From the NCBI GenBank assembly GCA_015065365.1, contig SVQL01000001.1, forward strand, positions 2,355-66,354: a stretch of DNA of 64,000 nucleotides. Reading direction: 5' to 3'. A program made the position numbers and the translations under genes. The stretch's first letter is position 1. Every line of letters begins with the position of its first letter. The stretch comes from Oscillospiraceae bacterium. Lineage in GTDB: Bacteria; Bacillota; Clostridia; Oscillospirales; CAG-272. Shown piece after piece: positions 5,880 to 39,592 of the stretch. A model generated the notes under the pieces. The model ran no database searches and had not been told where the DNA came from. It worked only from the letters and a program-made list of their open reading frames with translations.

Positions 5880-5921
5880 AAAAAGCCTCCTTGTTTTTTT
5901 GAAAAAAATTTTTAATGCTTT

Positions 5922-6047
5922 TTAGAATGGGTCTTCCGCCCAGTTATCGAGAGTGTCGCTTCCGAATATGACAGAAAATACCATGATGTCCTTCGTGTCA
6001 AGATTTACGACGCTGAGCTCGGGAACGACGTATTTTTTATTTTTCAT
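5922..6047 (-). CDS. Conserved 41-aa micro-protein (MKNKKYVVPELSVVNLDTKDIMVFSVIFGSDTLDNWAEDPF), unknown function
   Basis: ATG at 6047 with AGGAGG 9 nt upstream; TAA at 5922-5924. The paralogue at 32321..32449 has 33/41 identical residues, and half of the codon differences are synonymous. Too short for the supplied ORF track. Confidence 0.6.
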   Translation of the reverse strand: MKNKKYVVPELSVVNLDTKDIMVFSVIFGSDTLDNWAEDPF

Positions 6048-6065
6048 AATACTGTTCCTCCTTAA

Positions 6066-9000
6066 TTAGTAAACGAATTTTGCATAAACGGGCAGATGGT
6101 CGGAGGGATATCTCATTACTCCGTCAACCTCATCCACCTTGTTGTTGATTACGGTATACTCGAGAGCCTCAGCGTTTCTGTATATGACGTGGTCGAAGAC
6201 ATACTTATTACGAACTGTGTAATCGGTTCCGTCAAGCGTACCGCCGGTGTCACCTGCAATGAGCGCCTCGTCTCTTGCGAAGGAGAGTCCGCTGTCGGAG
6301 TATCCGTTGAGAACGACCTTACCTTTAGCCGAGCTAACGTCTGCATTCATGTCACCGGTAAGTATCTGCGTAGGATACTGTGCTGCCTTTTCCGCAAGCC
6401 ATGCAGCGAGAAGTCTCGACTGATATTCACGCAAGAGATGGTCGTCATCACACTCCGAATCAGAGGAGCTGGTACCGTCACCGTAATGGAGGTGAGTATT
6501 TACGAAGAGTATTACCTCGCCGGTCGTCTTGTCTTTGAGAACTGCGTAGCTAAAGGTTCTTCCGATGTCCTCGTCAGAGAACCAGCCCTCGGCATCTCCC
6601 TGAACGTCGATAGACATATCTGTGCCCTCGTAGCCCTCAATGGTATAGTCGTCAGCAAGATTCTTGAAGGAATCCCAACCGGAGCTCACAAGAGTGAACT
6701 TCTCAGTCTTGTAGTATATATCGTTGAATGCCCAGCCGTTGCCGAACTTGTTAGTATATTTGTTGTACTGTCTGTTGCCGGCAAGATTTGCATAGCCATT
6801 GTTCTTGAGAACAGCGAGATAATCGTTCCAATCCTCGGTGTCCTCCTGGATTCCGACAACGTCGGGGTTAGCATCAAGGATCGTCTGAACTGCGTTTGCG
6901 GGGTTTCTTCCCTCCCAAACGTCGTCTCCCTTATACTCAAGGTTGTAGGACAATACGTTAATATAGGATTGCTTCTCTTCATTTTCTCCGTCTGCAGGAG
7001 TGAAGAAGCCTGTAAGTGTCTTCAATTCGTCTGCATCGTAGGGGCTGTAAACGGTAGTGCCTGCAATAACTACGGAGTTATTGTACTTCTCGTTGCTCTC
7101 AGTGCTAACATCGCCGTATGCAGCTCTTGCAACCTCGTCGATAGATCTGGAGTTGCTCTCCAAATCGAAATCAGCGTATTTATAGATCTCTCCGTTTACT
7201 TCAATAAATGCTCTTGCGGAGAACTCGCGGTTGTAGTTGCCCGCCTTAACGTTAACGAGCGCGCAGTTGATGGTATAGGAAGCAGGGTCTTCGTCTTCGT
7301 GAATAGTCGTTGCGTCTATCCTTACGTACTTAGCACCCGTAATAGCACCGCATGCGTCCAGAGCCGCCATTTCAAAGTCTACACCGTTATTAGTAAGATA
7401 GTCGGTAGGAGTAATGATCATACCGAGCTTAACATTATCCTCGCCGTAGGTCTCTCTCAAGGAGTCGATCACGGGCTTTGAGAATTCACTCTTGAAGCGG
7501 ATACCCGTAGGAACGCTAAGACGAACGGATGCGCCGGATACGTTCAATACCTTTCCAAACTTAAGTCCCTTGTATATCTTTACGTCGGAAACCTCAGTCC
7601 AAGAATCCGCGTCAGAAGTGCCGCTCAATTTTCTTGTATAAATTCTGCATTTCAATGTATCTTTAAGCGCTGAACCCTCATAGGTCATCGCTCTTACCTT
7701 GTTGAACGAACCGTCGGCATCCATGACGTAAAGAGTCAACGTATTGTACTCGGGATCAACCTCAACAGCAAACGTATGCTTCTCAGCCTTAGCCACGTCG
7801 GTACTGTAATTCCATTTGTCTTCGCCCTCATCCGACTTTTCTACCTTTTGAGTATTCCATTCCCACAGAGAGTTACAACCGAAGCCGTCAATAACAAGCG
7901 TCTGATTGCCATCCACCTGAATACCGAGTCCGTACTTGTTATATGCTGTGTTTCCGAACTCCAGATCAAACACGAGGGTGTAATTGTTGTTCTTGTATAC
8001 GGGAGCTGCGCCTGCTTCAACCTCATCGGGATTCAGAACCTCTCTGAGAGGATATCCGCTGTCAAGTCCGCCCCATATAGCGCGGTTATATGCCTTGCCA
8101 TCAATAAGGGTAATTCTTGCAGAGCTTCCGTCCTCGGAAATAACAGCTTCTGCGCCATTATTATTACTGTCGTAGAATCCCTGATGCCAATTAAAGCGAT
8201 CAGCGAAGTTGACGGTATGCAATAGATCGCCCTCGTTTGCGTTTGCGTACTCAGCAGCTCTGTCTTCCTTAACGGATATAGGCAAGCCCTTGTATATCTG
8301 CACGTTAGAAACATAAGTCCAAACGTCGCTGCCAGTCGTGTAGCTGCGCGTGTAAATTCTGCAACTCAATTCAGTGCCAAAGGACAATTCTTCGTATCTG
8401 GCAACCTCGTTAAACGTGCCGTCAAGGTCTACGATATAGAGGCTCATTACTCCGTTTTCAGGATCGACCTCAACCGCGAACTTCTGAGTTCCTTCCTTAG
8501 GACTCCACAAACCGTCGTAGTCCCACTGCTCGGTGGGATATTTTTCTGCGTCTGAACTACTGAGCTCGGTATTCCAATCCCACAGCTTAGTGTTTCCGTT
8601 TCCGTCAACGGTAATAGTGTAGCTTCCGTCCACCTGAATACCAACCAGCGTTTTACCTCCGGTCGTGCTTCCGAAATCCGCATCGAATATAACCGTATAT
8701 TTTCTGTAATTGCCGTATACGTCTATCGTTGCGCTGGGATCATCAGGATCCTCTGCCGTACCTACAACCTCCATAAGGGGATACGCACTCTTCAATCCGC
8801 CCCACATAGCGCGCTTCGAGCTTGAGCCCAATACGGCAAGTCTTGCGGAGCTTCCGTCCTTGGAAACGACTACGTCCGCGCCTCTGTTGGAGTCAGTTGC
8901 AAAATAACCGAGCCACTCAAGCGAGTTGAAATCGACGGTATTCAGAAGATCGCCAACCTCTGCGTTATCATACTCAGCAGCTCTGTCTACCGTTCCCGTT

Positions 9001-10433
9001 TCAATATCATTAACCAATCCCTTGTATATCAGTATATCCGAAATCTCATTCCAGGAAACGCCGCTTACTTTTCTAGCATAAACTCTGCAACTCAATTCAT
9101 CATTAAAAGATATGCCGCTATAGGTTTCTACCTCTACGTACGTGCCTTCGGCATTCTTAACGTAAAGAGTCATCGTTCCGGTAACGGTTCCGTCTTCAGG
9201 GTCAGTTCCGGTATCAGGGTCAATCTCAACGGCAAATGAATTCATCTCGTCATAACCGTTCGCTGCCTTATCTATCCAGTTGACCGTTCCCGTAGTGTTT
9301 TTGGTATTCCAACTGTACAAATAGGTAAGGCCATCGCTGGCGACAAGAACCGTTTTACTGTTATCCACCTGGATGCCTACTCCGGTTTTTCCGTCTTCGA
9401 ATCTCGCGTCAAAGGTGACCGTGTACGTTTCTCCGTTCGCGAGAGAAAAGCGTTCCGCAGATACAAGTCCGCCCCACATAGCACGACCATTTTTGGCACC
9501 AAAAACAGATTTAGACGTGTTATGTATCTCCTGCTTTAGCGATCTTCCGCTTGCGGAAACGTATACATAGGAATTCCAGTTGTTGTGGTCAGCATAATCG
9601 TCGCTCCAGGACGTATCGTTGAAGTTGATAGCCTTAAGCAGTTCTCCGTTCTCTGCCTCTGCGTACAGCTCAGAAGGAGTCATTTCAACAGCGTCGGGAG
9701 TAACGACCGTTCCGTTTACGGTAACCTCACCGATATCGATGCAGCCGTCCTTGCTGGGTGCGGTTACGGCGATAGCGAAATACTTTGCCGTGACACCCTG
9801 ACCTTCACCGTCACGAAGATCTATCTTATGACCAACTCTGAGGAAGCCGTCAACGGTCTTGGAAGCGTATGCGTCGTCACCCTCAGCGGGGAAGTTCGCG
9901 CCCGCGTTCGTTCCGTCTCCGCACATTTCGCTGAACTCCTTCAAAGCAGTCCAGGTCTCGCCGTCCGTGCTCACGAGGATTTCATATCCGTCGTTTATAC
10001 CCCAGCTTGAAGCAGGATTGCTCCATCTTGCAGCCTGATCGGCAGTATATCCGTTTCCGGCAATCCAAATAGTTACGTCGTCAAGCTCACTCGTGCCGTT
10101 AAGCTCGAATACGGCGTATCCGTAGTACAAGCACATTTCCGAATCTACGAAAAGACGCGTATTTGCAGCGGATATCGCATCCGACTCGTAGTACGGACGA
10201 GCGCTCCTTCCGTCGGCACTCTCATCGTAAGGGTCTCCGTCAATCATTCCCGCAACGGAGCCGTACGAAACGTGCAAATCCCAGTCGTCGTCGTATTTTG
10301 CAAACATCTTCACGTGCTTAATGCTCGCGGGAGTAATTTCAGCATCCTCCGCACTTGCGGGCAAAACTATGATTGGCATTGCCATCATCAAGACCAATAC
10401 CAAGCATAAAAGCTTCTTTGCAATCTTTTTCAT
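6066..10433 (-). CDS. Secreted 1455-aa multidomain protein: F5/8-type-C-like domain, 3 lectin-like repeats, beta-sandwich domain, C-terminal EEP phosphoesterase
   Basis: Start at MKKIAKKLLCLVLVLMMAMPIIVLPASA, with AGGAG 6 nt upstream (ORF-track start 10508 rejected). YEILVSTDGETWTAL is a discoidin-like motif. Three repeats each end xIYKGL. GASVRLSVPTGIRF marks the beta-sandwich domain. EEP motifs: VLSYNLE, VGIQED, VNTHLHYG, TGDMNAD, FDHVIY, PSDHLPV. Confidence 0.85.
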   Translation of the reverse strand: MKKIAKKLLCLVLVLMMAMPIIVLPASAEDAEITPASIKHVKMFAKYDDDWDLHVSYGSVAGMIDGDPYDESADGRSARPYYESDAISAANTRLFVDSEMCLYYGYAVFELNGTSELDDVTIWIAGNGYTADQAARWSNPASSWGINDGYEILVSTDGETWTALKEFSEMCGDGTNAGANFPAEGDDAYASKTVDGFLRVGHKIDLRDGEGQGVTAKYFAIAVTAPSKDGCIDIGEVTVNGTVVTPDAVEMTPSELYAEAENGELLKAINFNDTSWSDDYADHNNWNSYVYVSASGRSLKQEIHNTSKSVFGAKNGRAMWGGLVSAERFSLANGETYTVTFDARFEDGKTGVGIQVDNSKTVLVASDGLTYLYSWNTKNTTGTVNWIDKAANGYDEMNSFAVEIDPDTGTDPEDGTVTGTMTLYVKNAEGTYVEVETYSGISFNDELSCRVYARKVSGVSWNEISDILIYKGLVNDIETGTVDRAAEYDNAEVGDLLNTVDFNSLEWLGYFATDSNRGADVVVSKDGSSARLAVLGSSSKRAMWGGLKSAYPLMEVVGTAEDPDDPSATIDVYGNYRKYTVIFDADFGSTTGGKTLVGIQVDGSYTITVDGNGNTKLWDWNTELSSSDAEKYPTEQWDYDGLWSPKEGTQKFAVEVDPENGVMSLYIVDLDGTFNEVARYEELSFGTELSCRIYTRSYTTGSDVWTYVSNVQIYKGLPISVKEDRAAEYANANEGDLLHTVNFADRFNWHQGFYDSNNNGAEAVISEDGSSARITLIDGKAYNRAIWGGLDSGYPLREVLNPDEVEAGAAPVYKNNNYTLVFDLEFGNTAYNKYGLGIQVDGNQTLVIDGFGCNSLWEWNTQKVEKSDEGEDKWNYSTDVAKAEKHTFAVEVDPEYNTLTLYVMDADGSFNKVRAMTYEGSALKDTLKCRIYTRKLSGTSDADSWTEVSDVKIYKGLKFGKVLNVSGASVRLSVPTGIRFKSEFSKPVIDSLRETYGEDNVKLGMIITPTDYLTNNGVDFEMAALDACGAITGAKYVRIDATTIHEDEDPASYTINCALVNVKAGNYNREFSARAFIEVNGEIYKYADFDLESNSRSIDEVARAAYGDVSTESNEKYNNSVVIAGTTVYSPYDADELKTLTGFFTPADGENEEKQSYINVLSYNLEYKGDDVWEGRNPANAVQTILDANPDVVGIQEDTEDWNDYLAVLKNNGYANLAGNRQYNKYTNKFGNGWAFNDIYYKTEKFTLVSSGWDSFKNLADDYTIEGYEGTDMSIDVQGDAEGWFSDEDIGRTFSYAVLKDKTTGEVILFVNTHLHYGDGTSSSDSECDDDHLLREYQSRLLAAWLAEKAAQYPTQILTGDMNADVSSAKGKVVLNGYSDSGLSFARDEALIAGDTGGTLDGTDYTVRNKYVFDHVIYRNAEALEYTVINNKVDEVDGVMRYPSDHLPVYAKFVY

Positions 10434-10531
10434 GTTTTTCTCCTTTTTTGTTTTGTTTTTATTTTTAATAGCGTATATTTTTACGCCAATTAAATTAAAT
10501 ATAATCACTTAATATCGTTATTACCAAATAT

Positions 10532-11170
10532 TTACTCGTCTACGGTAATAGTACAGTACAACGCATAGTGGTCTGAAAGATCTGTTCCCGCAAGCGTAAA
10601 ATCGGTTACGGTAACACCCTTATATACGATATTATCGAGAGAGGAACCACTCTCGTACGTTGGCATTTTATCATCAGTGTTTCCGAGAGTGTAGCCCGCG
10701 TCGGTAAAGAGTTCAAACTCAGAGAATGAGTTAATGTTCCAGTCACCGAGAAGAACAACGTGCTCATATTGCTCACAATACTCAATAAGCTCTTTTAACT
10801 GATTGTTTATAATGTTCTTCGAGCCAAATGCCAGATGCGTGCTGACAAGCTTAACCGTCGTGCCGTTTATCACAAGGTCGGTGGTAACAAAATAATAATC
10901 GGCACCCTCAGGGGAATATTTTCCGAGCTTACCCAAATCCTTATTACACTCAAACTCGTGAACTTCAGGCTCGGATATCTCTATTCTGGAATATACCGCG
11001 TTACAGCTGTAATTGCGCTGAGGTCCCTCGTAAACGGTATCGTATCCCTTAAAAATTGTATCCTTTGCAAGATAGTTATTCTTTGTGAACTTTTTGCTGT
11101 ACTCGTTCAAGAACATAATATCTGCATCAATGGCATTATTGATATAGTCGCTGAAATCGGCGTTCTTCAT
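10532..11170 (-). CDS. EEP catalytic core lacking its first strand (downstream half of a split EEP lipoprotein gene)
   Basis: Motifs DADIMFLNEY, VSTHLAFG, LGDWNI, LDNIVY and LSDHYAL. The ATG overlaps the upstream TGA (ATGA at 11167-11170). The N-terminal WN strand is encoded by the preceding ORF in another frame. Confidence 0.6.
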   Translation of the reverse strand: MKNADFSDYINNAIDADIMFLNEYSKKFTKNNYLAKDTIFKGYDTVYEGPQRNYSCNAVYSRIEISEPEVHEFECNKDLGKLGKYSPEGADYYFVTTDLVINGTTVKLVSTHLAFGSKNIINNQLKELIEYCEQYEHVVLLGDWNINSFSEFELFTDAGYTLGNTDDKMPTYESGSSLDNIVYKGVTVTDFTLAGTDLSDHYALYCTITVDE

Positions 11171-12219
11171 TGCAAACTGAGTGTCCTGATCGTGGAATAA
11201 TCCTTATGCCCGATCGAAAAGTGACCGATGTTCCACGTAGCTATCCTTACGGAATTGGGATTTTCAGGTCCGTACGACGCCTTGGTAAACTTGATTTCAG
11301 AGGGAAGATACGTTGTTGCGGAATTATTGTTGTAAACATAGAGGTATCTTGCATTATCGGGAATTCTTACGGTAATACTATCCTCGTTTACACTTACCAC
11401 GTTAGTATATCCCGCGGCATAGCAGGGAGTAAGATCATAGCAAAGCTCGTCACCCATAAATGCATAGGTAATAGCCTTACCATTCGCATTTTTCTTCATG
11501 GTAACAGTATTGAAAGTAGTACCCTCAAGCTCGATTATCGCGCCTTTCATCGACGATGATTTGGCGTAAACGTTTGAGCTTGTAACGTAACCGTCAAGAA
11601 CCTCTATTTGTTCAAGCGGGTATACGCACTCCGCAGCGCTTTCGTTTATGAGCGGATTGACATAGCCGTCAATGAAGGTTACGGACTTAGGAATATGAAT
11701 ATCCTTTTTGCTGCTATAGTAAACATAGAGATACTTTGCGTCATCGGGGATCTTTAGCGTTGCTTTTGTGGAAATATCCCATACGCAATGGGTATATCCG
11801 GTTGCATACTTGGGAGTCGTATTCAGGGCAAGCTCACCCGCAAGAAACGTATAGCCAAGCGAAAATCCGCTGTCGTTTTTCTCAAGCTGAACGTGAGAAT
11901 AGTCGATCCCGTCAAGGTCGATCACGGCACCGTAATAGCCGTCTGCCTTTTTGTACTTATTTTCCTTATCGGCAATCGTGCCCGGAAGCTTAACAATATC
12001 CTCAACAGAATAAGAAAACGTTCTGATATAATCCATCTCGGATTCATCCTTATCGTCTTTAGGAGCGGTATCTGAACTGTTGGTATCCGTGTCACCGCTT
12101 CCGCTTTCACCTATGTTAGGTGTAGGGGTTTCGTTTTCCGTGTTTCTACATGAGCTTAGACAGGCAAGTGTCGAAATCAAAATAACAGCCACTAAAATTT
12201 TTGCAATAAGGTTTTTCAT
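11167..12219 (-). CDS. Lipoprotein with two ~120-aa internal repeats, ending in the first EEP strand (VRIATWNIGHFS)
   Basis: Lipobox ISTLACLSSC. Internal duplication (…IPDDAKYLYVYYSS… and …IPDNARYLYVYNNN…). The C-terminus IATWNIGHF is the EEP N-terminal Mg-binding strand, and the rest of the domain is in 10532..11170. Confidence 0.6.
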   Translation of the reverse strand: MKNLIAKILVAVILISTLACLSSCRNTENETPTPNIGESGSGDTDTNSSDTAPKDDKDESEMDYIRTFSYSVEDIVKLPGTIADKENKYKKADGYYGAVIDLDGIDYSHVQLEKNDSGFSLGYTFLAGELALNTTPKYATGYTHCVWDISTKATLKIPDDAKYLYVYYSSKKDIHIPKSVTFIDGYVNPLINESAAECVYPLEQIEVLDGYVTSSNVYAKSSSMKGAIIELEGTTFNTVTMKKNANGKAITYAFMGDELCYDLTPCYAAGYTNVVSVNEDSITVRIPDNARYLYVYNNNSATTYLPSEIKFTKASYGPENPNSVRIATWNIGHFSIGHKDYSTIRTLSLQ

Positions 12220-30866: not shown

Positions 30867-31004
30867 CGTCCGTTCCTGCGGCTGAATAATTTTCGAATTT
30901 TAACTTAAGCGGTATTTTCAATTCAAGGTTATAAATAAAATAATCGTTCTGTATTCATTACGGTATATTGGGGTGTTGTTCTAACGTTAAGTAAAATTAA
31001 ACAA

Positions 31005-31037
31005 CTGCACAAGCCCGTCAAAGACGGACTTGTGCAG
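31005..31037 (-). terminator. Rho-independent terminator after the GGCG-tail gene; copy of hairpin 2616..2648
   Basis: CTGCACAAGCCCGTC aaa GACGGACTTGTGCAG (15-bp stem, one mismatch). On the minus strand it is followed by TTGTTTAATTTT. Confidence 0.55.
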
Positions 31038-31131
31038 CATTCTGTAGCTATTAGTCTAATAGCATATCACACGTCACGAACTGTTGACATGTTTTAAAAC
31101 GTATTCAAAATATATTGCGAAGTTTTTTTAA

Positions 31132-32274
31132 TCAGTCTTCTTTTCTCTTGATTACGAGAGCCGCGCCGGAAGCGAGTGCTATCATAGCAACGCCTGCAAT
31201 TCCGATAGAGCCGCCGCATCCGCCTGCAGCTGCCTCAGTCTCGGGAGCAGGAGCAGCATCGGTGTTAGCCTCAGTATTTGCGTCGGTTTCGGGAGTCGTG
31301 TTGGTGTTGTTATTCTCGTTGTTATTCTCGTTGTTATTCTCGTTGTTCTCGCCGTTGTTCTCATTGCCGTTCTCCTCGCCGCCTTCTTCGCCGGCAGAGG
31401 GTACGTCTAATTCGGGAGCAGCAAGCTCGTGCTCGGTAACTGCAAGTCCCTTGTATACACTAACGTTGTGAACCTCCATAGTAAGGAACTGCTCGGGGGT
31501 AACGTTGTCGCGTCCGAAACGGATAACGTATTCCCAGTTATCGTAAGCCCAACCGTGGCTCTCCTTAATCATCTGTGCGTCAACAGGCTCATCTTCCATC
31601 GAGAAGATCAATTCCCATGCGCCGTCCTTAACGACGTAAACATTATAAACGGTAATGTTATATACGAATCCAGCAGTGGTTTCGGTATTCATAGCGCCTT
31701 CGGGATGCTCACCGGTACCCTCGTCCTTGATTTCGATAGCGTAGGTCTGGGTCAAAGCAGCGTCACCGGTAGGTCCGTCGTATTCAACCGTAAACTTGGT
31801 GCTATCGTATTTTCCGCCCGCGTTTACAACGTAGGACAGGGTGTTCTTACCGGGAGTAAAGAAGAAGCCGGTTCTCCAGTCGGGATAGTATCCTATCGCC
31901 TGATTTTCATCCTCAGCGCTGAGAGTGAATACGGTGGTATAAGCGCTCTGGTGCATAGTGAATCCACTACCGGGCAAACGTCCGCCGTAACCACTTGTGT
32001 GACCCTCGTTTTTGACATCAGTCTGGGGAATGTAGGTAAAGGACATTCCGTCCTCTGAGACCTCAACGTTAGCGCCTGCCCAAGTAGCCGTAACGCCGAA
32101 GTATTCCTTGTTGTTGAAGTCTACGTTAGCGATAAGCTCGCCGTCTTCAACTGCGCCGTAGTTTTCGGGGAGCGACACCTCGCTGTTCTCTGCGAATGCC
32201 GCGATTGCCATGAAGGGCACGGTCATAAGAGTAACCAATGCCAAAGCCAAAATTTTTTTCATTGTGTTTTTCAT
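31132..32274 (-). CDS. Secreted single-repeat lectin-like protein with N/E-rich linker and C-terminal GGCG-helix-KRKED signal
   Basis: Start at MKNTMKKILALALVTLMTVPFMAIAAFA (AGGAGG RBS; ORF-track start 32358 rejected). Repeat motifs YTTVFTLSAEDENQAIGYYPDWRTGFFF, QTYAIEIKDEG and VSVYKGLAV. The tail is AAGGCGGSIGIAGVAMIALASGAALVIKRKED. Confidence 0.8.
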   Translation of the reverse strand: MKNTMKKILALALVTLMTVPFMAIAAFAENSEVSLPENYGAVEDGELIANVDFNNKEYFGVTATWAGANVEVSEDGMSFTYIPQTDVKNEGHTSGYGGRLPGSGFTMHQSAYTTVFTLSAEDENQAIGYYPDWRTGFFFTPGKNTLSYVVNAGGKYDSTKFTVEYDGPTGDAALTQTYAIEIKDEGTGEHPEGAMNTETTAGFVYNITVYNVYVVKDGAWELIFSMEDEPVDAQMIKESHGWAYDNWEYVIRFGRDNVTPEQFLTMEVHNVSVYKGLAVTEHELAAPELDVPSAGEEGGEENGNENNGENNENNNENNNENNNTNTTPETDANTEANTDAAPAPETEAAAGGCGGSIGIAGVAMIALASGAALVIKRKED

Positions 32275-32320
32275 AAAAAACCTCCTTAAAATTTTATTGA
32301 AAAAAATTTGTTTACTGTTT

Positions 32321-32449
32321 TTAGAATGGGTCTTCCGCCCAGTTATCGAGACTGTCATTTCCGAATATTACGGAAAATATCATAATATCCTTCGTATCAA
32401 CAGTAACGACTCTCATTTCGGGAGAAACGTATTTTTTATTGCTTTTCAT
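32321..32449 (-). CDS. Conserved 42-aa micro-protein (MKSNKKYVSPEMRVVTVDTKDIMIFSVIFGNDSLDNWAEDPF), paralogue of 5922..6047
   Basis: ATG at 32449 with AGGAGG 9 nt upstream; TAA at 32321-32323. Same position between the EEP gene and the GGCG-tail gene as in locus A. Confidence 0.6.
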   Translation of the reverse strand: MKSNKKYVSPEMRVVTVDTKDIMIFSVIFGNDSLDNWAEDPF

Positions 32450-32463
32450 TTTTTCATTCCTCC

Positions 32464-33300
32464 TTATCTGTAATAAATTAACTTTGCTATAACCGGAAGG
32501 TGGTCTGACGGATACGGTGTGTAATCAGCATCGTCGTACTCATTGTTTATTACCGAGTATTCAACAGCTTGCATATTTTCATCGGTGTAAAGGATATAAT
32601 CAAATATCCATTCTTCACGCTTTTCGTGCTCCGTTATAAGCGTACCGCCCATATCATGCTTGATAATTGCACTATCCTCAGACGTAAGTAGGCCGCTGTT
32701 ACCAGTAAGCTCAGCAATAGTCTGCTTTCCGGGAGTAGCATTCATATCTCCCATAACTATCTGATTGGAATAGTCAGCTGACATATTGTCAAGCCATCTG
32801 CGCAGAAGTCTCGTCTGATAGTCACGAAGAAGCTCATCATCGGGGTAATTAGAGCCTGTACCCTTTCCATAATGCAAATGAGTGTTTACGACGAGATACT
32901 GTACACCCTTATCATCTTCCAAAACCACGTATCGGAAGAATCTGCCTATTTCGTCAAAGACGGATATGTCAAAGTTACCCTTAGTATCCAAGGTTAAATC
33001 CGCGCCTTTAGCGTCTACGTCCTTATACTCCTTTGCAAGCTTTTTGTAGTACCCTATGCCGCTGGTGACAAGCGTAAATTTATCGCTCTTGTAGTAGATT
33101 GCAAGATTCTCATTTCCGTTTCCGCCGGACTTGTAGCAAGAATATCCTTTAAGCGCCGACAAATAACTGTCCCAATCACTGTCGTCCTCTTGCAATCCGA
33201 GCACATCGGGATTGAACGTCATAATAGTATCTACAACCTTGGAAGGATCTCTGCCCTCCCAACCGTTATCATCGTCCTTGCCCTCGATATTATAGGTCAT
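32464..33300 (-). CDS. EEP phosphoesterase domain ORF, probably the C-terminal part of a lectin-EEP fusion reached by a -1 shift from 33306..36830
   Basis: Motifs MTYNIE, LGLQED, VNTHLHYG, MGDMNAT, FDYILYT and PSDHLPVI. No RBS or signal peptide of its own. The frame is open upstream back to the T7 run and aligns with the A-locus giant (…FF…SLTAMTYNIEGKDDD vs …FF…YINVLSYNLEYKGDD). Confidence 0.75.
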   Translation of the reverse strand: MTYNIEGKDDDNGWEGRDPSKVVDTIMTFNPDVLGLQEDDSDWDSYLSALKGYSCYKSGGNGNENLAIYYKSDKFTLVTSGIGYYKKLAKEYKDVDAKGADLTLDTKGNFDISVFDEIGRFFRYVVLEDDKGVQYLVVNTHLHYGKGTGSNYPDDELLRDYQTRLLRRWLDNMSADYSNQIVMGDMNATPGKQTIAELTGNSGLLTSEDSAIIKHDMGGTLITEHEKREEWIFDYILYTDENMQAVEYSVINNEYDDADYTPYPSDHLPVIAKLIYYR

Positions 33301-33305
33301 CGCTG

Positions 33306-36300
33306 TCAGGGAACAAGTGTATTCACCTGTTCCCTTTGTTGAAAAAAATTCAAAAGGTTATCTCTTTTTTCGTATGGGCTGTATTTCTTTCCGTCAACCG
33401 TTTCTACCTCATACTGATACGTCAAGCCATTCTTAACAGTTCCGCGGACGTCGCTCAAGTCGTTATATGCAGCCATAGCGATGTCGGCTACCGTTCTTGA
33501 ATTGTTCTCCGAATCGTAATCGGAATAAATATATTCCACGTTTTCCCCGTTCACAATCTTTACGTAAAGAATTGCCGAGAAGGCTCTCTCGTAGTTTTGA
33601 GATTTTATATTAGTAATAGCGCAATTTATCTTGTAATAATCGCCATCCTCCAAAACTGTCAGCGCGTCGATTTCAAGATACTTAACGCCTTCTCTGTCGG
33701 AAGCATCAAGTGCCGCCTTAGTAAACTCAACGTCGGTAAGATAATCGGTAGGAGTGATCAACATTCCCATAATAACGTTATCCTCGCCGTATTTTGCCTT
33801 AAAGGTGTCGATATAGCTCTTGTAGATAAGACCTGTAAAGCGAAGTCCCGTAGGCTCGTCTATACGAATAGACGCTCCGTTTATAAGGTCTACCACGGAA
33901 GGAAGATTTCCGCTTCCCTTATAGACCTTTAGATCGCTAACGGTTACGACACCGTCCTGATTTCCAACGTTAGAATTACGGTAGAAACGCAATGCAAGCT
34001 CGGGATCCGTCGTACTCCAGTTCAGTGCAGTCGCAGGATCATTAATCAATTCATCGGGGTTAAGTGCGCGCACCAATACCCACTTGTTGTCCTGCAATAC
34101 CCAAAGATTGTATATAGTACAGTCAAAATCACTCGTAGACGTGCCGTTATCAGATATCTGAATTGCATACGTCTGAGTAAGAGCCTTAGTTCCGCCGTAG
34201 GTTCCCTCTACACCGGCAACAACTGCGTTGTTTTTGCCTTCGTTCGTACTCTTGTTAAATCTGTATGCGTTCTGACCGGGAGTCAAAATAAAGCCTGAAT
34301 TCCAGTCGGGGTAAAATCCTATCTCTTGATTTGCATCCGAAGCCTCCAAGGTAAATACAACGGTATACGAGCTCTTGAGTATCGGATAACGGTTGACAGC
34401 CATATCCTTACCCCATGCGCCCGATTTGCCATCTTCTATTCTCATCTCGATCGTGTGCTTATTCAAGATGGTCTCGTTTATTCCAGCCCAGCTGTCACCG
34501 GTGTTCCATATACCGGGCGTACCGTTGAAGTCAGCATAATAGAGCAGCTCGCCGTCATTAGCATCGGAATAAGACTTGGGCATGGGCACGCTTATCTTTC
34601 CGGCAGTAACTCCAAGTCCCTTATAAACGTCCAAATTACTGAGAGTTACGTACTTGCCCTCTTGTGATTTATCCAAGCCGTTACGGTAGAATCTAAGCAC
34701 GTATTCGTAATTATCTGCCGTATCGGTGTTCCACTTCAAATTTTCTTCAATCGCAGCAGCTGCCGCTTCGTTTCCGGGAGAGCTGAACTTAAATATAAGA
34801 ACCCACTTACCGTCAATCGCCACGTAAAGATTATACTCGGTAATATCGTATTCGAAGTTGGCTACATTGCCGTCGTTCTCGTTTCCGCTATCCATGATCT
34901 CAATAGCGTAGGTTTGCTTCAAGGCCTTCGTTCCGTTGTAGCTTCCCTTTATCTCGCTTCCGTTTTTATCAACGAGAGTTTCACCCAATTTACCAACACC
35001 GTATCTAAAGCTGTCAGCACCCGGCTTCAAAATAAATCCGGTGTTCCAATCGGGATAAAATCCTATCTCCTGATCCGCATTTTCAGCCTCTACCGTAAAT
35101 ATCGCGGTATAGGAGCTTTGAAGCATTCTATAAGTAGGATAATGCAGCTCAGCGCCCCAAGCAGCGCCCTCCGTAACGATTGCACCGTTCGCATCATAGG
35201 TAGTGGGCACCAAATTAATAGAGCGGTCCGTCACATTATAACGGTTCTCATTCATTCCCGCCCAAGCCTTTTGGGGAGTCCACAATCCACCGTTATCGTT
35301 TGTGAAGCTTGCGTTTATAATACACTCAACATCCTGACCGTAGGAACCGAACGCGCTAACAAATCCTTCACTTACCGAAAGTCCGGTATAAACGCTCAAA
35401 TCGCTAACGGTCATACCCAAATTTTGAGTTGTATCCTGTCCGTTACGGAACAAACGAAGCACGAATTCGTAATTGCTTGAATTCCACGTCAAAGCATTTT
35501 TGATAGCAGCTGCGTGCTCGGAATCCTTAAGGCTGAACAGCTTAACCCATTCGCCATCCTGAGCCACCCAAAGGTTATATTCGGTGATATTGTACTTAAA
35601 ATTCTCTTTTGCTCCGCCGTTTTCATCGCCTTCATCCTTGACTTCGATCGCGTAAGTCTGCTTCAATGCCTGCGTTCCGGCATATCTTCCCGAAAAGATA
35701 GTACTTCCGGTCGATCCACCGGCGTATTTACCGTATCTGTAGCTATCCTGACCGGGCTTCAAAATAAATCCGGTGTTCCAATCGGGGAATAGACCGAGCT
35801 CTTGATTTGCGTCTTCAGCCTCCAAGGTAAATACTACCGTATAAGCACTCTGGAGCATACGGTAATCGGGATACGGTAAGTCATCGCCCCAAACTGCGCC
35901 CTGTGTAACAAGATCACCGTTTGAATCATACATGGTAGGTATCAACATAACCGAGCTTCCGTCAGAGGAAGGACGCTTTGTCTTCATACCCGCCCAACTT
36001 TCTCCCGGGCTCCAAAAATCTCCTGTGCCCTTAAAATTTGCAGTATAGATAAGCTCACCGGTAGGGGGAGCCACCTTTCTGTTCGTAACAGCAAGACCAC
36101 TGTAAACGTTACAGTTGCTGACTATCAGCGACTTTTTTACTTGAGACTCGTCAGTTCCGTTACGCCAGAAGCGAAGCACGTATTCATAGTCACCGCTTGA
36201 CCAATTCAACGCAGAGTCAGGGTTGCAAGTCAATTCACTGCCTGAAAGCGAATACAAGAGCGTCCACTTGCCGTCAAGAATTACCCAAAGCTTATAAGCG

Positions 36301-36830
36301 GTAATCTTATAGTTTCCTCTGCCGGTTCCGCTGTCCTCAACCTCAATAGCATAGGTCTGCTTCAAGGATTTCGTTCCGTCATACGTTCCTTCTATACCCG
36401 CGTAGGTAGTACCTGCTCTATCTCTGCCGAACCTGAAGCTATCCTGACCGGGCTTTACGATAAAGCCTGTTTTCCAATCAAGGAATAGACCTACCTCCTG
36501 GTTCGCATCTTCAGCTTCCACGGTAAACACTGTGGTATAAGCGCTTTTAGACATCTCATATTTTGAAGTATCCAGTGCGCCGCCCCAAACGGATCCTTCT
36601 TCTCTTTTGAAAGTAAACTTCAAATCTATGGAGCGTCCGTCTTCGGAAATCTGGGGATCTATGCCTCCCCAACCACCTATGGGAGCATCGGAATTCCACG
36701 CTCCGCCGCCGTTAAAGTTGATCTCATCAATCAAATCTCCGACTTCCGCACTCGCGGGCAAAATTATCATCGGCATTGCCATCATCAAGACTAGCGCAAA
36801 GCATAAAAGCTTTTTTGCAATCTTTTTCAT
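33306..36830 (-). CDS. Secreted protein with four ~220-aa lectin-like repeats plus beta-sandwich domain (zero-frame product 1174 aa)
   Basis: Signal peptide MKKIAKKLLCFALVLMMAMPMIILPASA. Four repeats carry AxWG, YTxVFTxEAEDANQExGxxPDWNTGFIxKPG, QTYAIE and xVY[KST]G. GASIRIDEPTGLRF marks the domain also found in 6066..10433. Confidence 0.85.
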   Translation of the reverse strand: MKKIAKKLLCFALVLMMAMPMIILPASAEVGDLIDEINFNGGGAWNSDAPIGGWGGIDPQISEDGRSIDLKFTFKREEGSVWGGALDTSKYEMSKSAYTTVFTVEAEDANQEVGLFLDWKTGFIVKPGQDSFRFGRDRAGTTYAGIEGTYDGTKSLKQTYAIEVEDSGTGRGNYKITAYKLWVILDGKWTLLYSLSGSELTCNPDSALNWSSGDYEYVLRFWRNGTDESQVKKSLIVSNCNVYSGLAVTNRKVAPPTGELIYTANFKGTGDFWSPGESWAGMKTKRPSSDGSSVMLIPTMYDSNGDLVTQGAVWGDDLPYPDYRMLQSAYTVVFTLEAEDANQELGLFPDWNTGFILKPGQDSYRYGKYAGGSTGSTIFSGRYAGTQALKQTYAIEVKDEGDENGGAKENFKYNITEYNLWVAQDGEWVKLFSLKDSEHAAAIKNALTWNSSNYEFVLRLFRNGQDTTQNLGMTVSDLSVYTGLSVSEGFVSAFGSYGQDVECIINASFTNDNGGLWTPQKAWAGMNENRYNVTDRSINLVPTTYDANGAIVTEGAAWGAELHYPTYRMLQSSYTAIFTVEAENADQEIGFYPDWNTGFILKPGADSFRYGVGKLGETLVDKNGSEIKGSYNGTKALKQTYAIEIMDSGNENDGNVANFEYDITEYNLYVAIDGKWVLIFKFSSPGNEAAAAAIEENLKWNTDTADNYEYVLRFYRNGLDKSQEGKYVTLSNLDVYKGLGVTAGKISVPMPKSYSDANDGELLYYADFNGTPGIWNTGDSWAGINETILNKHTIEMRIEDGKSGAWGKDMAVNRYPILKSSYTVVFTLEASDANQEIGFYPDWNSGFILTPGQNAYRFNKSTNEGKNNAVVAGVEGTYGGTKALTQTYAIQISDNGTSTSDFDCTIYNLWVLQDNKWVLVRALNPDELINDPATALNWSTTDPELALRFYRNSNVGNQDGVVTVSDLKVYKGSGNLPSVVDLINGASIRIDEPTGLRFTGLIYKSYIDTFKAKYGEDNVIMGMLITPTDYLTDVEFTKAALDASDREGVKYLEIDALTVLEDGDYYKINCAITNIKSQNYERAFSAILYVKIVNGENVEYIYSDYDSENNSRTVADIAMAAYNDLSDVRGTVKNGLTYQYEVETVDGKKYSPYEKRDNLLNFFQQREQVNTLVP
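33309..33348 (-). promoter_or_regulatory. Candidate -1 recoding cassette: slippery U UUU UUU, 7-nt spacer, 11-bp hairpin
   Basis: mRNA sense: AAU UUU UUU CAACAAA GGGAACAGGUG AAUA CACUUGUUCCC UGA. T7 run = 33342-33348 (A7 on the + strand). Hairpin = 33309-33334. The zero-frame stop is at 33306-33308. Confidence 0.45.
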
Positions 36831-36866: not shown

Positions 36867-38342
36867 TTAACCTAAATTGTTTATTACTTTGAGTTCCTTG
36901 TTAATAGTGTTTCTGTTCATAACAAGGTAGATTTGCATGTTCTGATTTCTCTCCATTATCATTTTACGAGGAATCGTATATGCAGTAGTATCGAATACGA
37001 TGCCTATGTCAGTCGTTCTCGAATCGTATATCAAGTCAACGAGCTTGGTATCTCCCTCGTCGTCAAGATATCTGAGCTTCAATACGCTTTCATAATAGAA
37101 AGGTACGAGCGTTTGCTTACCAAGACTTGCCATTACCTCGAACGCCGCCCCCGTCTGATCGTACTTCGCAGTATTCGTGTTGGGGATTGCGTACAGAATA
37201 GCAATGTTGTGGACGTAAGAATAATATTCCTTCTGATCCACGTCGTACTTAGGATAAGGCAACGGAGCAAAGCCGTCGGTCATGTCAGTAAAGTTTCTCG
37301 CGGTATAGAAGTAACCGATGGAGAACAGCATCTCGCCGTCAGCAAACTTCTGCACGAGTATGGAAGAGTGCTTACTGTTATAAAGCTGAGTGTCTCCCGC
37401 ATTGTTTCCGTATTCCCCTGCGCCCTCAATGTGCATAAGGTTATACAGGCGTCCCATAACATCTATTGAACGCTCGTCGCCAATGGCAAGAACTGCCTTA
37501 CCCTCGTTATCTCGCTGGATAATAGTTCCGCCTGCTCCCACATACCAGCCAACTGTATTAGCGTCGGTGCAAAGGAAGCCGAACTGGTCTTCAATATCTA
37601 CCGCCTGGCTATTGTTCAAATCCTTCCACATATTCTTTGAAAGCGTTGCCGCTTCATCGATAGTCCACTTGCCCTCAAGAACCATCGTTCTGAGGTTTAC
37701 GTACGCATCGTCGCCGTAGTTTTCTGCAAGAAGCTTCTTATTTACGAATATGGAGCCCGTGTTGCTTACCATATCTATACCAACGTCACCCGCCATTACG
37801 TAGTTATGTCCGTTTAGTTTAGCGGCGTTCATGTAATCCTGCGCCCACCAGTCGCCCGTAAAGTCAAGGTACTTGGAGTCGTCAAGGCTCTTAAACCAGC
37901 CTTCAAGAACGAGAGCCATTCCGTTCCACTGAACGAGCTGATATGCGTCAAACTCCGTGGACTCCGCCTGAAGAAGAGGACGGATATCCGTTGCCGCATT
38001 ACTCGATTCCGAGCCGGTGTCGATAAAGTTTATCTGAAGATTGAGATAATCCTCTGCCTTTACGTTTCTCTTATAAAGCTCGAGAGAAATAAAATCTCCG
38101 TCCTCCATAGAGCCGTTCATGTCGTAGAAGTATTCAGCAGCATTCGACGCGGTCGTAGTCTGCCAAACGTTAATTTCTTCTCCCTCGAATTTGACGCCCT
38201 TAACCTTGTCACTCAGCAAAAGACCGTCGTCCGCTTCGGTAGTAACCGCAGCCTCGGTCTCATTCACAGAGCCACCGACGCAAGATACGATAAGCGGGCA
38301 CAACATCAAGATTGCCAATAAAAGCACCATTATTTTTTTCAT
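36867..38342 (-). CDS. Extracellular solute-binding lipoprotein (sugar-type), orphan; first gene of the locus-B operon
   Basis: Lipobox LCPLIVSC. ~490-aa family-1 SBP-like sequence. No cognate permease or ATPase genes nearby. Confidence 0.55.
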   Translation of the reverse strand: MKKIMVLLLAILMLCPLIVSCVGGSVNETEAAVTTEADDGLLLSDKVKGVKFEGEEINVWQTTTASNAAEYFYDMNGSMEDGDFISLELYKRNVKAEDYLNLQINFIDTGSESSNAATDIRPLLQAESTEFDAYQLVQWNGMALVLEGWFKSLDDSKYLDFTGDWWAQDYMNAAKLNGHNYVMAGDVGIDMVSNTGSIFVNKKLLAENYGDDAYVNLRTMVLEGKWTIDEAATLSKNMWKDLNNSQAVDIEDQFGFLCTDANTVGWYVGAGGTIIQRDNEGKAVLAIGDERSIDVMGRLYNLMHIEGAGEYGNNAGDTQLYNSKHSSILVQKFADGEMLFSIGYFYTARNFTDMTDGFAPLPYPKYDVDQKEYYSYVHNIAILYAIPNTNTAKYDQTGAAFEVMASLGKQTLVPFYYESVLKLRYLDDEGDTKLVDLIYDSRTTDIGIVFDTTAYTIPRKMIMERNQNMQIYLVMNRNTINKELKVINNLG

Positions 38343-38427: not shown

Positions 38428-38456
38428 ATTATACCGCGATTACCCGTCTTTTTCAA
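38428..38456 (-). promoter_or_regulatory. Candidate promoter of the locus-B operon (TTGAAA-17-TATAAT)
   Basis: On the minus strand, TTGAAA is at 38456-38451 and TATAAT at 38433-38428. Same hexamers and spacing as 12343..12371. Confidence 0.5.
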
Positions 38457-38581: not shown

Positions 38582-38647
38582 CTACTTGTGCAAACAAGCC
38601 ATATTTACACAAATTTATTTATTTTGAAGATGGAAGTAAAATACAAA

Positions 38648-39592
38648 ATGAAGTTCACTCATTACGACTACAAGTGCATATATTACGCGCCGTCAAATAA
38701 TCCCAAGAAAAAATATGACTCAAAGTTTTTTATTGCCAGTAACCGAGCCGAAATAAATCTCGGTCTTGAATATCATACGTCCTCTATATCCATCTATACC
38801 GAGGACAAGGAATTTGAGCACTTCAAGCTCGGAGTCGACTTTTCCCCTCCCGGCTCTCTTCTTAATGGCAGATGCGAGGACAGACTATTTCTCAACTTTA
38901 TACTGAAAGGAAAAGGGCGAGTAAACGGCGTGCCTTTTTCCGCAGGTCAGTTTTATTATACTATCCCCCTACAAACGCATACAGTAGAAACCGATCAAGA
39001 CGATCCGTTCGTTTCCGCATGGATAGCCATTAACGGAACGTACGCGCAGCATGTCGTTAACGAGCTTAATAAAAAAAGCTCACAAAGACTTATGTCCTTG
39101 GAGCACCGAGCAGATATACTTAAATTAACCAAAATCTTCATATATGAGATCAATTTAGGAGAAACGTCCATCTCATACCTCAAGTCTATCATAGACATTT
39201 ATCTTTCGTACATAGTACCAAACAGCAGTCCGCAGCCCCCCGAATGGGTTGGAACGGAGAAAGCCGCTCAATTAATAAGAGAGTCAAGAAATTACGTAAG
39301 AAAAAATCTTAAATCCGTTACGGTCGCAGATCTTGCCGAGGTGCAGCACTACAACGTAAAATATTTTTCCCGCGTATTTACCGAGGCTATGGGCATGAAA
39401 CCGCTTGAATATATCACGAATTGCAGAATGGAATGGGCAAAAAACTCCCTTACACACTCAAATCTTTCCATTCCGGAAATAATGGAAGCGATAGGCTACG
39501 ATCACAGAAACGGCTTTACTACCGCCTTTAAGAAAAAATACGGCTGTCCGCCTGCGGAGTACAGAAGAAAAACGAAGCGCACCTCCTCCTGA
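38648..39592 (+). CDS. AraC/XylS-family transcriptional regulator, paralogue of 12561..13514
   Basis: Start at MKFTHYDYK (aligned with MKFTHCDYK of the paralogue; the ORF-track start 38588 would lie at the predicted TSS). HTH region YFSRVFTEAMGMKPLEYITNCRMEWAKNSLTHSNLSIPEIMEAIGYDHRNGFTTAFKKKYGCPPAEYRR. Confidence 0.85.
   Translation: MKFTHYDYKCIYYAPSNNPKKKYDSKFFIASNRAEINLGLEYHTSSISIYTEDKEFEHFKLGVDFSPPGSLLNGRCEDRLFLNFILKGKGRVNGVPFSAGQFYYTIPLQTHTVETDQDDPFVSAWIAINGTYAQHVVNELNKKSSQRLMSLEHRADILKLTKIFIYEINLGETSISYLKSIIDIYLSYIVPNSSPQPPEWVGTEKAAQLIRESRNYVRKNLKSVTVADLAEVQHYNVKYFSRVFTEAMGMKPLEYITNCRMEWAKNSLTHSNLSIPEIMEAIGYDHRNGFTTAFKKKYGCPPAEYRRKTKRTSS

Follow-up and report, generated by a model that had tools for sequence, protein, structure and literature searches.

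Small proteins are the least annotated part of bacterial genomes. The window analysed here, the whole stretch of 64,000 nucleotides, contains an open reading frame of 42 amino acids (sORF B) that lies between a gene for an EEP-domain protein and a gene for a secreted protein with a C-terminal GGCG tail. A paralog (sORF A) is found in a second operon. A preliminary description of this DNA considered the frame a hidden micro-protein gene and proposed that the three genes function as a fixed triplet. The locus raises the questions of whether sORF B is a genuine protein-coding gene and with which of its neighbors, if any, its product works.

The two small genes and their operons

sORF B is read from the minus strand with its ATG at 32449-32447 and its TAA at 32323-32321, and its translation is MKSNKKYVSPEMRVVTVDTKDIMIFSVIFGNDSLDNWAEDPF. 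The AGGAGG ribosome-binding site located 9 nt ahead of this ATG overlaps the TAA of the EEP gene, coupling the two genes translationally; the EEP stop codon is 14 nt upstream of sORF B. The same overlap is present in all low-GC loci. Between sORF B and the next gene is an A/T-rich spacer of 46 nt with AAGGAGG followed by TTTTTT at its 3' end, just before the ATG at 32274. The coordinates, the ribosome-binding site and its distance, the position between the EEP and GGCG-tail genes, and the existence of copy A were all given correctly in the preliminary description. The features of the two operons are as follows.

38588..39592, plus strand: divergent AraC-family regulator (HTH_18, from the context table)
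38428..38456, minus strand: sigma-70-like promoter ahead of operon B, 11/12 matches
36867..38342, minus strand: 491-aa lipoprotein, first gene of operon B
33306..36830, minus strand: 1174-aa secreted protein with four ~230-aa modules and a C-terminal GASIR..PTGLRF domain
32464..33300, minus strand: EEP gene, 278 aa, no signal peptide, sORF-linked clade (Pfam, NJ tree, AF2)
32459..32464, minus strand: ribosome-binding site AGGAGG of sORF B
32321..32449, minus strand: sORF B, 42-aa micro-protein of the DNW subfamily, stop included (direct reading, family HMM, dN/dS)
31132..32274, minus strand: 380-aa secreted protein with one ~230-aa module, a low-complexity linker and a tail of GGCGGS, TM helix and KRKED
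31004..31038, minus strand: intrinsic-terminator-like hairpin with a 16 bp stem that ends operon B
6066..10508, minus strand: 1480-aa secreted protein whose C-terminal EEP domain belongs to the sORF-linked clade (Pfam, residues 1186-1471; tree)
5922..6047, minus strand: sORF A, 41-aa paralog, 78-80% identical to sORF B (family HMM)
4104..5879, minus strand: 591-aa secreted protein with a tail of KGGCGSS, TM helix and RRRKDD, 3' of sORF A

The gene order in operon B is lipoprotein, repeat protein, EEP, sORF, and tail protein. Its promoter diverges from that of the flanking AraC gene; at its other end the operon is flanked by a lipoprotein EEP, a GH39 enzyme, and KDG-pathway genes. The locus A paralog of the 491-aa lipoprotein matches SBP_bac_1 weakly. 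sORF A, which is translated as MKNKKYVVPELSVVNLDTKDIMVFSVIFGSDTLDNWAEDPF, lies 18 nt 3' of the 1480-aa protein gene and 42 nt 5' of the gene for the 591-aa protein. When the six-frame translation of the window was searched with the family HMM described below, sORF B (E=3.4e-22) and sORF A (E=1.1e-21) were found and nothing else rose above noise.

The DNA of the two loci is related in a block (5830..6060 versus 32225..32465, both minus strand) that extends from the sORF ribosome-binding site through the spacer to the signal peptide of the downstream gene. Similarity in this block is well above that of the flanking EEP 3' end and the mature downstream protein, suggesting a conserved cassette or gene conversion. 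A near-identical long hairpin (GCTGCACAAGTCCGT...ACGGACTTGTGCAG) closes several sORF operons in both the window organism and a related MAG (window 31004..31038; L019 7484..7600; L002 14300..14428).

The proteins around the sORFs have several recurring parts. The ~230-aa module (SAYT.VFT.EAED.NQE.G..PDW.TGF...PG...Y ... TQTYAIE ... Y.ITVYN.Y ... YKG) has four copies in the 1174-aa protein and a single one in the 380-aa protein; it has no match in Pfam and is probably a carbohydrate-binding module. The GASIR..PTGLRF domain, for which there is no Pfam model, precedes the EEP domain in most loci. A third recurring part is a C-terminal tail made of an acidic, Thr- and Pro-rich linker, (G)GCG(G/S)S, a TM helix of about 20 residues, and a KRK or RRR-ED end. 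It is carried by otherwise unrelated secreted proteins (window 31132..31260 and 4104..4240, both minus strand; L017 10102..11241; L029 1828..3348; L084 946..2625) and looks like a sorting or anchoring signal. In the window, the 380-aa protein ends in ...AAAGGCGGSIGIAGVAMIALASGAALVIKRKED and the 591-aa protein in ...KGGCGSSIGLCGAAMVMASAIGVVGLTSRRRKDD.

In most loci, among them locus A, a giant Sec-exported protein carries the EEP domain at its C-terminus, and paralogous loci have a protein of the 1174-aa type fused to EEP. In locus B the EEP is a separate open reading frame, lacking a signal peptide and a ribosome-binding site, that starts 5 nt after the stop of the 1174-aa gene. This junction (33295..33310, minus strand) has a counterpart in a second species (L017 6130..6145) where the split is kept. 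A programmed frameshift joining the two genes was considered and rejected, as a slippery site is lacking and the second species shares the split. The arrangement has the look of a conserved gene fission, after which the EEP is apparently cytoplasmic. Elsewhere in the window, another EEP gene (10532..12219, minus strand) is split into open reading frames of 350 aa and 212 aa. The same split is seen in contigs L023 and L024, and in contig L022 this gene is intact and encodes 562 aa; this is a strain frameshift polymorphism or an assembly difference.

The 278-aa EEP matches Pfam PF03372 (E=2.8e-16), and the catalytic motifs QE, NTHL, GDxN, and SDHxP are invariant in the alignment of the sORF-linked clade. 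A PDB sequence search with the EEP alone returned nothing. A profile of the clade matched CNOT6L (partially), the mannosyl-6-phosphatase BT3783 (4c1r; E=1.2e-7, nearly full length), and nocturnin. The AF2 model (pTM 0.81) had nocturnin, BT3783, TDP2, and CNOT6L as its top Foldseek matches, with a probability of 1.00 for nocturnin, BT3783, and TDP2. From these similarities and the operon content, the enzyme is most plausibly a glycan or small-molecule phosphoesterase in a sugar-utilization operon.

sORF B is a genuine protein-coding gene without a name. We compared seven distinct DNA versions, of which two are from the window, four are from MAG GCA_045631025.1 (Eubacteriales, SGB_5258), and one is an ENA variant. 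Between pairs of these, dN/dS was 0.07-0.22, and the variable columns at codon positions 1, 2, and 3 numbered 13, 10, and 30. Thus, the sORF is under purifying selection as a protein. In a lineage with 58-61% GC, the same type of peptide is encoded by entirely different codons. These results and the HMM scores bear out the earlier claim of a real, conserved coding sORF. It is not really hidden, as that account had it: this very protein is listed by gene callers on 24-30 public contigs. We also considered an RNA element at this site and rejected it, as an Rfam gathering scan of the whole window had no match and the predicted RNA fold of the sORF region was not significant (z=-1.6).

The gene pair and the wider family

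Word-based sequence searches with the sORF returned near-identical sequences only. An exhaustive HMMER search with a 9-sequence profile (E<=1e-3, representatives at 50% identity) gave 78 representatives, all but two of which are 33-57 aa long. The two long matches (P0008 and P0075) are repeat proteins and were discarded as spurious; none of the 78 matches is a fusion of the sORF to another protein. An 80-member profile expanded the set to 2247 clusters (90% identity, E<=1). Members from named sources are annotated as "hypothetical protein" and come from Ruminococcus flavefaciens, Lachnospiraceae, and Clostridia MAGs. Other searches added less. A genome-contig scan used a pattern that was too narrow and found one species representative, MAG Eubacteriales SGB_5258, together with a false match in Salinibius. 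A metagenome search with a hand-made DNA pattern gave 37 matches, six of them true family members, and tblastn of plasmids and phages gave no match.

The pattern [YFW]xxP-x10-[DE]-x4-S is kept by 191 of 193 sampled family members, and the consensus of the N-terminus is MKKKYxxPEMEIIEFDTEDVITTS. The tail that follows the conserved Ser has a median of 17 residues and, on average, a net charge of -3.2; it is rich in Gly, Asp, and Asn, and in most members an aromatic residue lies close to its end. We found no Pfam or NCBIfam family at E<=1 for either window sORF, nothing above threshold and no consistent family for 80 relatives, and no paper on the family in a literature search that included the motif string DVITTS. 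There are several sORF paralogs per genome.

The window sORF fits this family in its length, its [YFW]xxP-x10-[DE]-x4-S handle, and its acidic tail rich in Gly, Asp, and Asn. The two window copies belong to a subfamily, here called DNW, with the tail DxxDNWxxDx[FWY] (39 of 191 family members). sORF B, with the tail DSLDNWAEDPF, has both features of this subfamily, the tail and a position directly 3' of an EEP domain. In 33 DNW representatives clustered at 50% identity, P10, D32, W37, and D40 are invariant, and Y7, D21, S26, D35, N36, and F42 are almost invariant. Within the subfamily no part is more conserved than the tail; across the whole family the tail is hypervariable. The earlier suggestion that the C-terminal LDNWAEDPF is the best candidate for a functional core is upheld insofar as this motif is a conserved signature of the DNW subfamily. 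An AF2 model of the sORF built from the 33-sequence alignment had a pLDDT of 66 and no secondary structure. Based on this model, the lone peptide has no confident fold and probably needs a partner in order to fold.

We examined gene neighborhoods in 16 independent DNW loci (window A and B; L017-L020; a 47-aa copy in L002; L026; L029; L084; L052, L071, L074, L075, L079, and L081). An EEP domain is encoded directly upstream of the sORF in 15 of the 16, from the window with 46% GC to contigs with 58-61% GC. The exception (L081) is a contig of 1.1 kb in which only a low-complexity C-terminus is visible upstream. The distance from the EEP stop to the sORF start ranges from -4 to about 27 nt, and every locus has a ribosome-binding site that reads AGGAGG or AGGAGA. 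When 17 EEP domains from sORF loci were placed in an NJ tree, the 10 that are linked to an sORF formed one clade and the seven sORF-less paralogs from the same loci formed the other. The link between sORF and EEP noted in the preliminary description thus holds, with one particular EEP clade and over distantly related Clostridia. Much of the co-occurrence of this EEP clade with the sORF may simply be inheritance of one ancestral module.

The third gene behaves differently. A gene with a GGCG or GCG tail is located 3' of the sORF in seven of the 16 loci and is absent from this position in nine, which contradicts the expectation that such a gene always follows immediately; in one of the seven, L084, the tail gene sits behind a terminator and its own promoter. 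At least eight loci have no further gene between the sORF and an intrinsic terminator or hairpin. A GGCG-tail protein also occurs without an sORF (L017 10102..11241). From the frequency of the tail gene and of the terminators, we conclude that the conserved unit is the pair of EEP followed by sORF, not the triplet, and that the fixed triplet proposed earlier is facultative synteny. Distant homologs that have neither EEP nor GGCG neighbors, which the preliminary description had named as evidence against a joint function, argue against a three-gene unit and leave the EEP-sORF pair standing.

These distant sORFs lie at the same short distance 3' of other large secreted proteins. One is a protein of 1167-1237 aa within an operon of N_methyl (pilin-like) genes, and another is a 1160-aa Flg_new repeat protein; in R. 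flavefaciens, family sORFs lie behind small secreted proteins. The C-terminal domains of the upstream proteins in the wider family showed no common domain when compared with hhalign (probability 0.5-2.2%). In six contigs (L032-L034, L041-L043), the order in a conserved operon is an N_methyl protein of 385-394 aa, a secreted protein of 1167-1237 aa, the sORF, an N_methyl protein of about 200 aa, and a 135-aa dockerin protein; here the micro-protein family is embedded in a pseudopilin-like system. One R. flavefaciens operon (FRCT01000020.1; L035 7535..8138) contains two family sORFs. The second of them has a tail, DDGLNWSPLTPI, that recurs at the C-terminus (DDGLEWSPLTPIN) of the lipoprotein of 147 aa encoded before it; the two coding stretches differ at 11 of 45 nt, and most of these differences are synonymous. 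In this operon, then, two carriers keep the same peptide epitope.

Possible roles of the peptide

The best explanation, which we put forward tentatively and by analogy, is that the peptide may be a co-translated partner of the EEP domain with an immunity- or chaperone-like role. The sORF product has no signal peptide and the EEP is either part of an exported protein or, in locus B, stand-alone and likewise without a signal peptide, so the cytoplasm is the only compartment that the two share in all loci. There, the peptide would bind the newly made EEP domain directly. In this model, the handle common to the whole family would be the conserved N-terminal strand KKYxxPxhxVhxh..D..TxS, and the acidic and aromatic tail DxxDNWxxDxF would be an EEP-specific contact, possibly a phosphate mimic at the metal site. 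Binding could keep the EEP inactive or export-competent until it is outside the cell. The closest analogy would be the immunity gene behind a colicin or polymorphic-toxin nuclease domain, or a dedicated secretion chaperone. Peptides of the wider family would serve other large surface proteins in the same way, each by means of a different tail.

The strict position of the sORF, its translational coupling, and its specificity for one EEP clade are consistent with a partner peptide, as is the match between the type of tail and the type of upstream protein. No maturation genes were found in about 30 related loci or in the window; the 64-kb window encodes no radical SAM protein, RRE, peptidase, cyclase, kinase, or ABC exporter. 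Other observations weigh against this reading. The enzyme resembles glycan or small-molecule phosphoesterases, in the branch of BT3783 and nocturnin, and is encoded in a sugar-utilization operon; nothing points to its being harmful in the cytoplasm. No domain common to the proteins upstream of the wider family's sORFs was found, and the single inherited module mentioned above could account for much of the co-occurrence. The conserved Y..P N-terminus followed by a hypervariable tail looks like a RiPP or pheromone precursor, and the tail repeated on an extracellular lipoprotein in R. flavefaciens fits an exported ligand better.

This resemblance leads to the main rival explanation, which we regard as rather unlikely: the sORF may encode a RiPP-like or signaling-peptide precursor whose maturation genes are elsewhere in the genome. 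Its N-terminus (MKKxYxxPxh...F/V-D/E-T...S) would be a leader that is recognized by an RRE and then cut off, and the tail DxxDNWxxDxF would be the mature, possibly phosphorylated peptide, making the family a Clostridial cousin of the linear polyphosphorylated peptides (LPPs) of Bacilli or of lasso peptides. A precursor would be expected to look much as the family does, with a Y..P handle kept in 191 of 193 members, a match to the RRE consensus, hypervariable tails, several paralogs per genome, and disorder of the lone peptide. The tail shared with the R. flavefaciens lipoprotein, the matches, all below thresholds, to TfuA (6jx3_A) and to lasso models, and the parallel with the layout of LPP precursors point the same way. 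However, we searched about 30 loci of eight context types and within about 10 kb found no gene for an RRE, a peptidase, a kinase, a cyclase, a radical SAM protein, or an ABC exporter. Similarity to known precursors is below curated thresholds and limited to MKKxYxxP, and only 42 of 191 tails are compatible with a lasso core. The strict location behind the gene for a large secreted protein, and a tail that matches the type of that protein, would be unexpected for a RiPP.

It is improbable that the sORF, the EEP, and the GGCG-tail protein form an obligatory three-part system in which, for example, the peptide aids sorting or anchoring of the tail protein. Such a system would explain why the only two family sORFs in the window adjoin its only two GGCG tails, why the same order recurs in L017, L018, L020, and L029 (and in L084 with a terminator between), and why the block of high identity between loci A and B reaches from the sORF across the tail gene's signal peptide. 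It does not accommodate the nine of 16 loci without a tail gene, the terminators or hairpins that end at least eight, or the tail proteins that exist without an sORF, one ortholog of which has Tyr in place of the Cys. Finally, the tight placement of the sORF between two operon genes, with RBS-to-RBS spacing, would suit a translated spacer or upstream open reading frame that acts only in cis, by coupling or tuning translation of the next gene or by stabilizing the mRNA, and whose peptide has no function, but this is very improbable given strong purifying selection on the amino acids across lineages from 46% to 61% GC, at least eight loci with only a terminator after the sORF, and no significant RNA structure.

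A broader reading, possible yet doubtful at present, is that Clostridia carry a very large and unnamed class of "trailer" micro-proteins, all with a universal Y..P...D....S handle and each with a tail fitted to the large surface protein or enzyme whose gene precedes it; the DNW peptides would be an obligatory subunit, inhibitor, or chaperone of a clade of glycan phosphoesterases. This would be a new kind of trans-acting peptide partner for secreted proteins. Alternatively, this would be the first RiPP-like family in which precursors are wired to target proteins rather than to maturation enzymes. The family comprises thousands of clusters in gut and rumen Clostridia and has neither a Pfam or NCBIfam model nor a name, and the link of the DNW sORF to one EEP clade was previously unreported. 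The EEP-sORF pair offers a testable case for the role of a trailing micro-protein, be it inhibition, chaperoning, sorting, or signaling. Control of a glycan phosphoesterase by the peptide would bear on how fiber-degrading Clostridia handle phosphorylated glycans; a RiPP-like product would add precursors with no nearby gene cluster to the YxxP-leader world of lasso, PQQ, and LPP peptides.

Comparison with known systems

The GGCG tail has similarities to C-terminal sorting signals that contain Cys, such as MYXO-CTERM and its relatives, which have been described in a survey that does not cover Firmicutes (Haft preprint 10.1101/2023.06.07.544157). Both are three-part C-terminal ends of secreted proteins, in which a short motif of Gly and Cys is followed by a TM helix and, at the very end, a basic cluster. 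They differ in that the Cys of the GGCG tail is not invariant; in the L017 ortholog GGCGGS is replaced by GGYGGS, and the other nine tails examined here keep the Cys. The NCBIfam CTERM models did not match the GGCG tail, and we identified no cognate protease for it.

Like the EEP, BT3783 (4c1r) has the EEP fold and is encoded in a polysaccharide-utilization locus, and it matches the EEP model with a Foldseek E=6.6e-14. Identity between the two is 18-20%, and nocturnin, TDP2, and CNOT6L score equally well, so the match to BT3783 does not define the substrate of the EEP. Our searches turned up no partner peptide for BT3783.

Precursors of lasso peptides and PQQ share a leader consensus, [Y/W]xxPx[L/V/I/A/F/Y], that binds RRE (PqqD-like) domains (PMC13381572). 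The sORF fits this with Y7-V-S-P10-E-M12, and 82% of family members have M, I, or L five positions after the Y. Compared with a leader such as MEKKKYTAPQL, the N-terminus of the sORF (MKSNKKYVSPEM) has the same Lys-rich start, YxxP, and hydrophobic residue two positions on; it is also short, disordered alone, and variable in its C-terminal part. Lasso precursors have Thr at leader position -2 and a core that begins with G, A, S, or C and carries Asp or Glu at position 7-9. By contrast with lasso precursors, the sORF has no Thr at position -2, where there is an F, its tail begins with Val after S26, and there are no genes nearby for an RRE, a B-type peptidase, or an Asn-synthetase-like cyclase. 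The NCBIfam lasso models NF033528 and NF033524 did not match the window sORF at E<=1. Among the 80 relatives, NCBIfam matches all scored well under the cut-offs: lasso_cyano (three members, best E 0.049), paeninodin (0.11), and StsA (0.36). The only PDB match of the family profile was the leader of TfuA, the fusilassin precursor (6jx3_A, E=0.94).

LPPs are made in Bacilli from precursors of about 40 aa with the motif YxxPxVLxHQxIxFETxxS, and their BGCs encode a SipW-like peptidase, a discrete RRE, a kinase of the HprK-like type, an NTP transferase, and a transporter resembling MsbA in polysaccharide loci that include phosphate chemistry (PMC13381572, Nat Commun 2026). LPP precursors such as MTKKPYAPPSVLSHQKVSFETKASGNDNGGGDGGGPGGNFWS have a layout strikingly like that of the sORF: they resemble it in length, in an MKK-YxxP start, in an F-E-T motif and a following Ser, and in a variable tail rich in Gly, Asp, and Asn, as well as in lying in a polysaccharide locus that includes phosphate chemistry. 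The sORF differs in matching the LPP motif only over YxxPxh, with spacing that is off by three residues, and in that the phosphate enzyme at the sORF is a hydrolase, the EEP, where that of the LPP locus is a kinase. None of the LPP core genes occurs in the window or in any of the loci retrieved. Against the family HMM, TfuA and one LPP precursor outscored all 200 shuffles, and the HMM aligned LPP sequences only over MKKxYxxP, with scores of -2 to 7.7 bits. Judged by sequence similarity, which is below thresholds, and by the lack of the lasso and LPP maturation genes in these loci, the sORF does not belong to the lasso or the LPP family. The YxxP resemblance is a lead that the handle may be a peptide-recognition strand.

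In colicins such as the E9/Im9 system and in polymorphic toxins, the immunity gene directly follows the region for the C-terminal nuclease domain. The immunity proteins known are folded, and most have at least 80 aa. The protein upstream of the sORF differs from a colicin in that it looks like a glycan-binding protein and glycan phosphoesterase in a sugar-utilization operon rather than a toxin; polymorphism of the catalytic domain was not seen. Nevertheless, the sORF resembles a colicin immunity gene in being a small gene that directly follows the coding region for the catalytic domain at the C-terminus of a large secreted protein, a placement seen in locus A, L018, L020, L029, and L052-L079. 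The likeness also includes translational coupling, the lack of any fusion between the two, and co-inheritance with one EEP clade.
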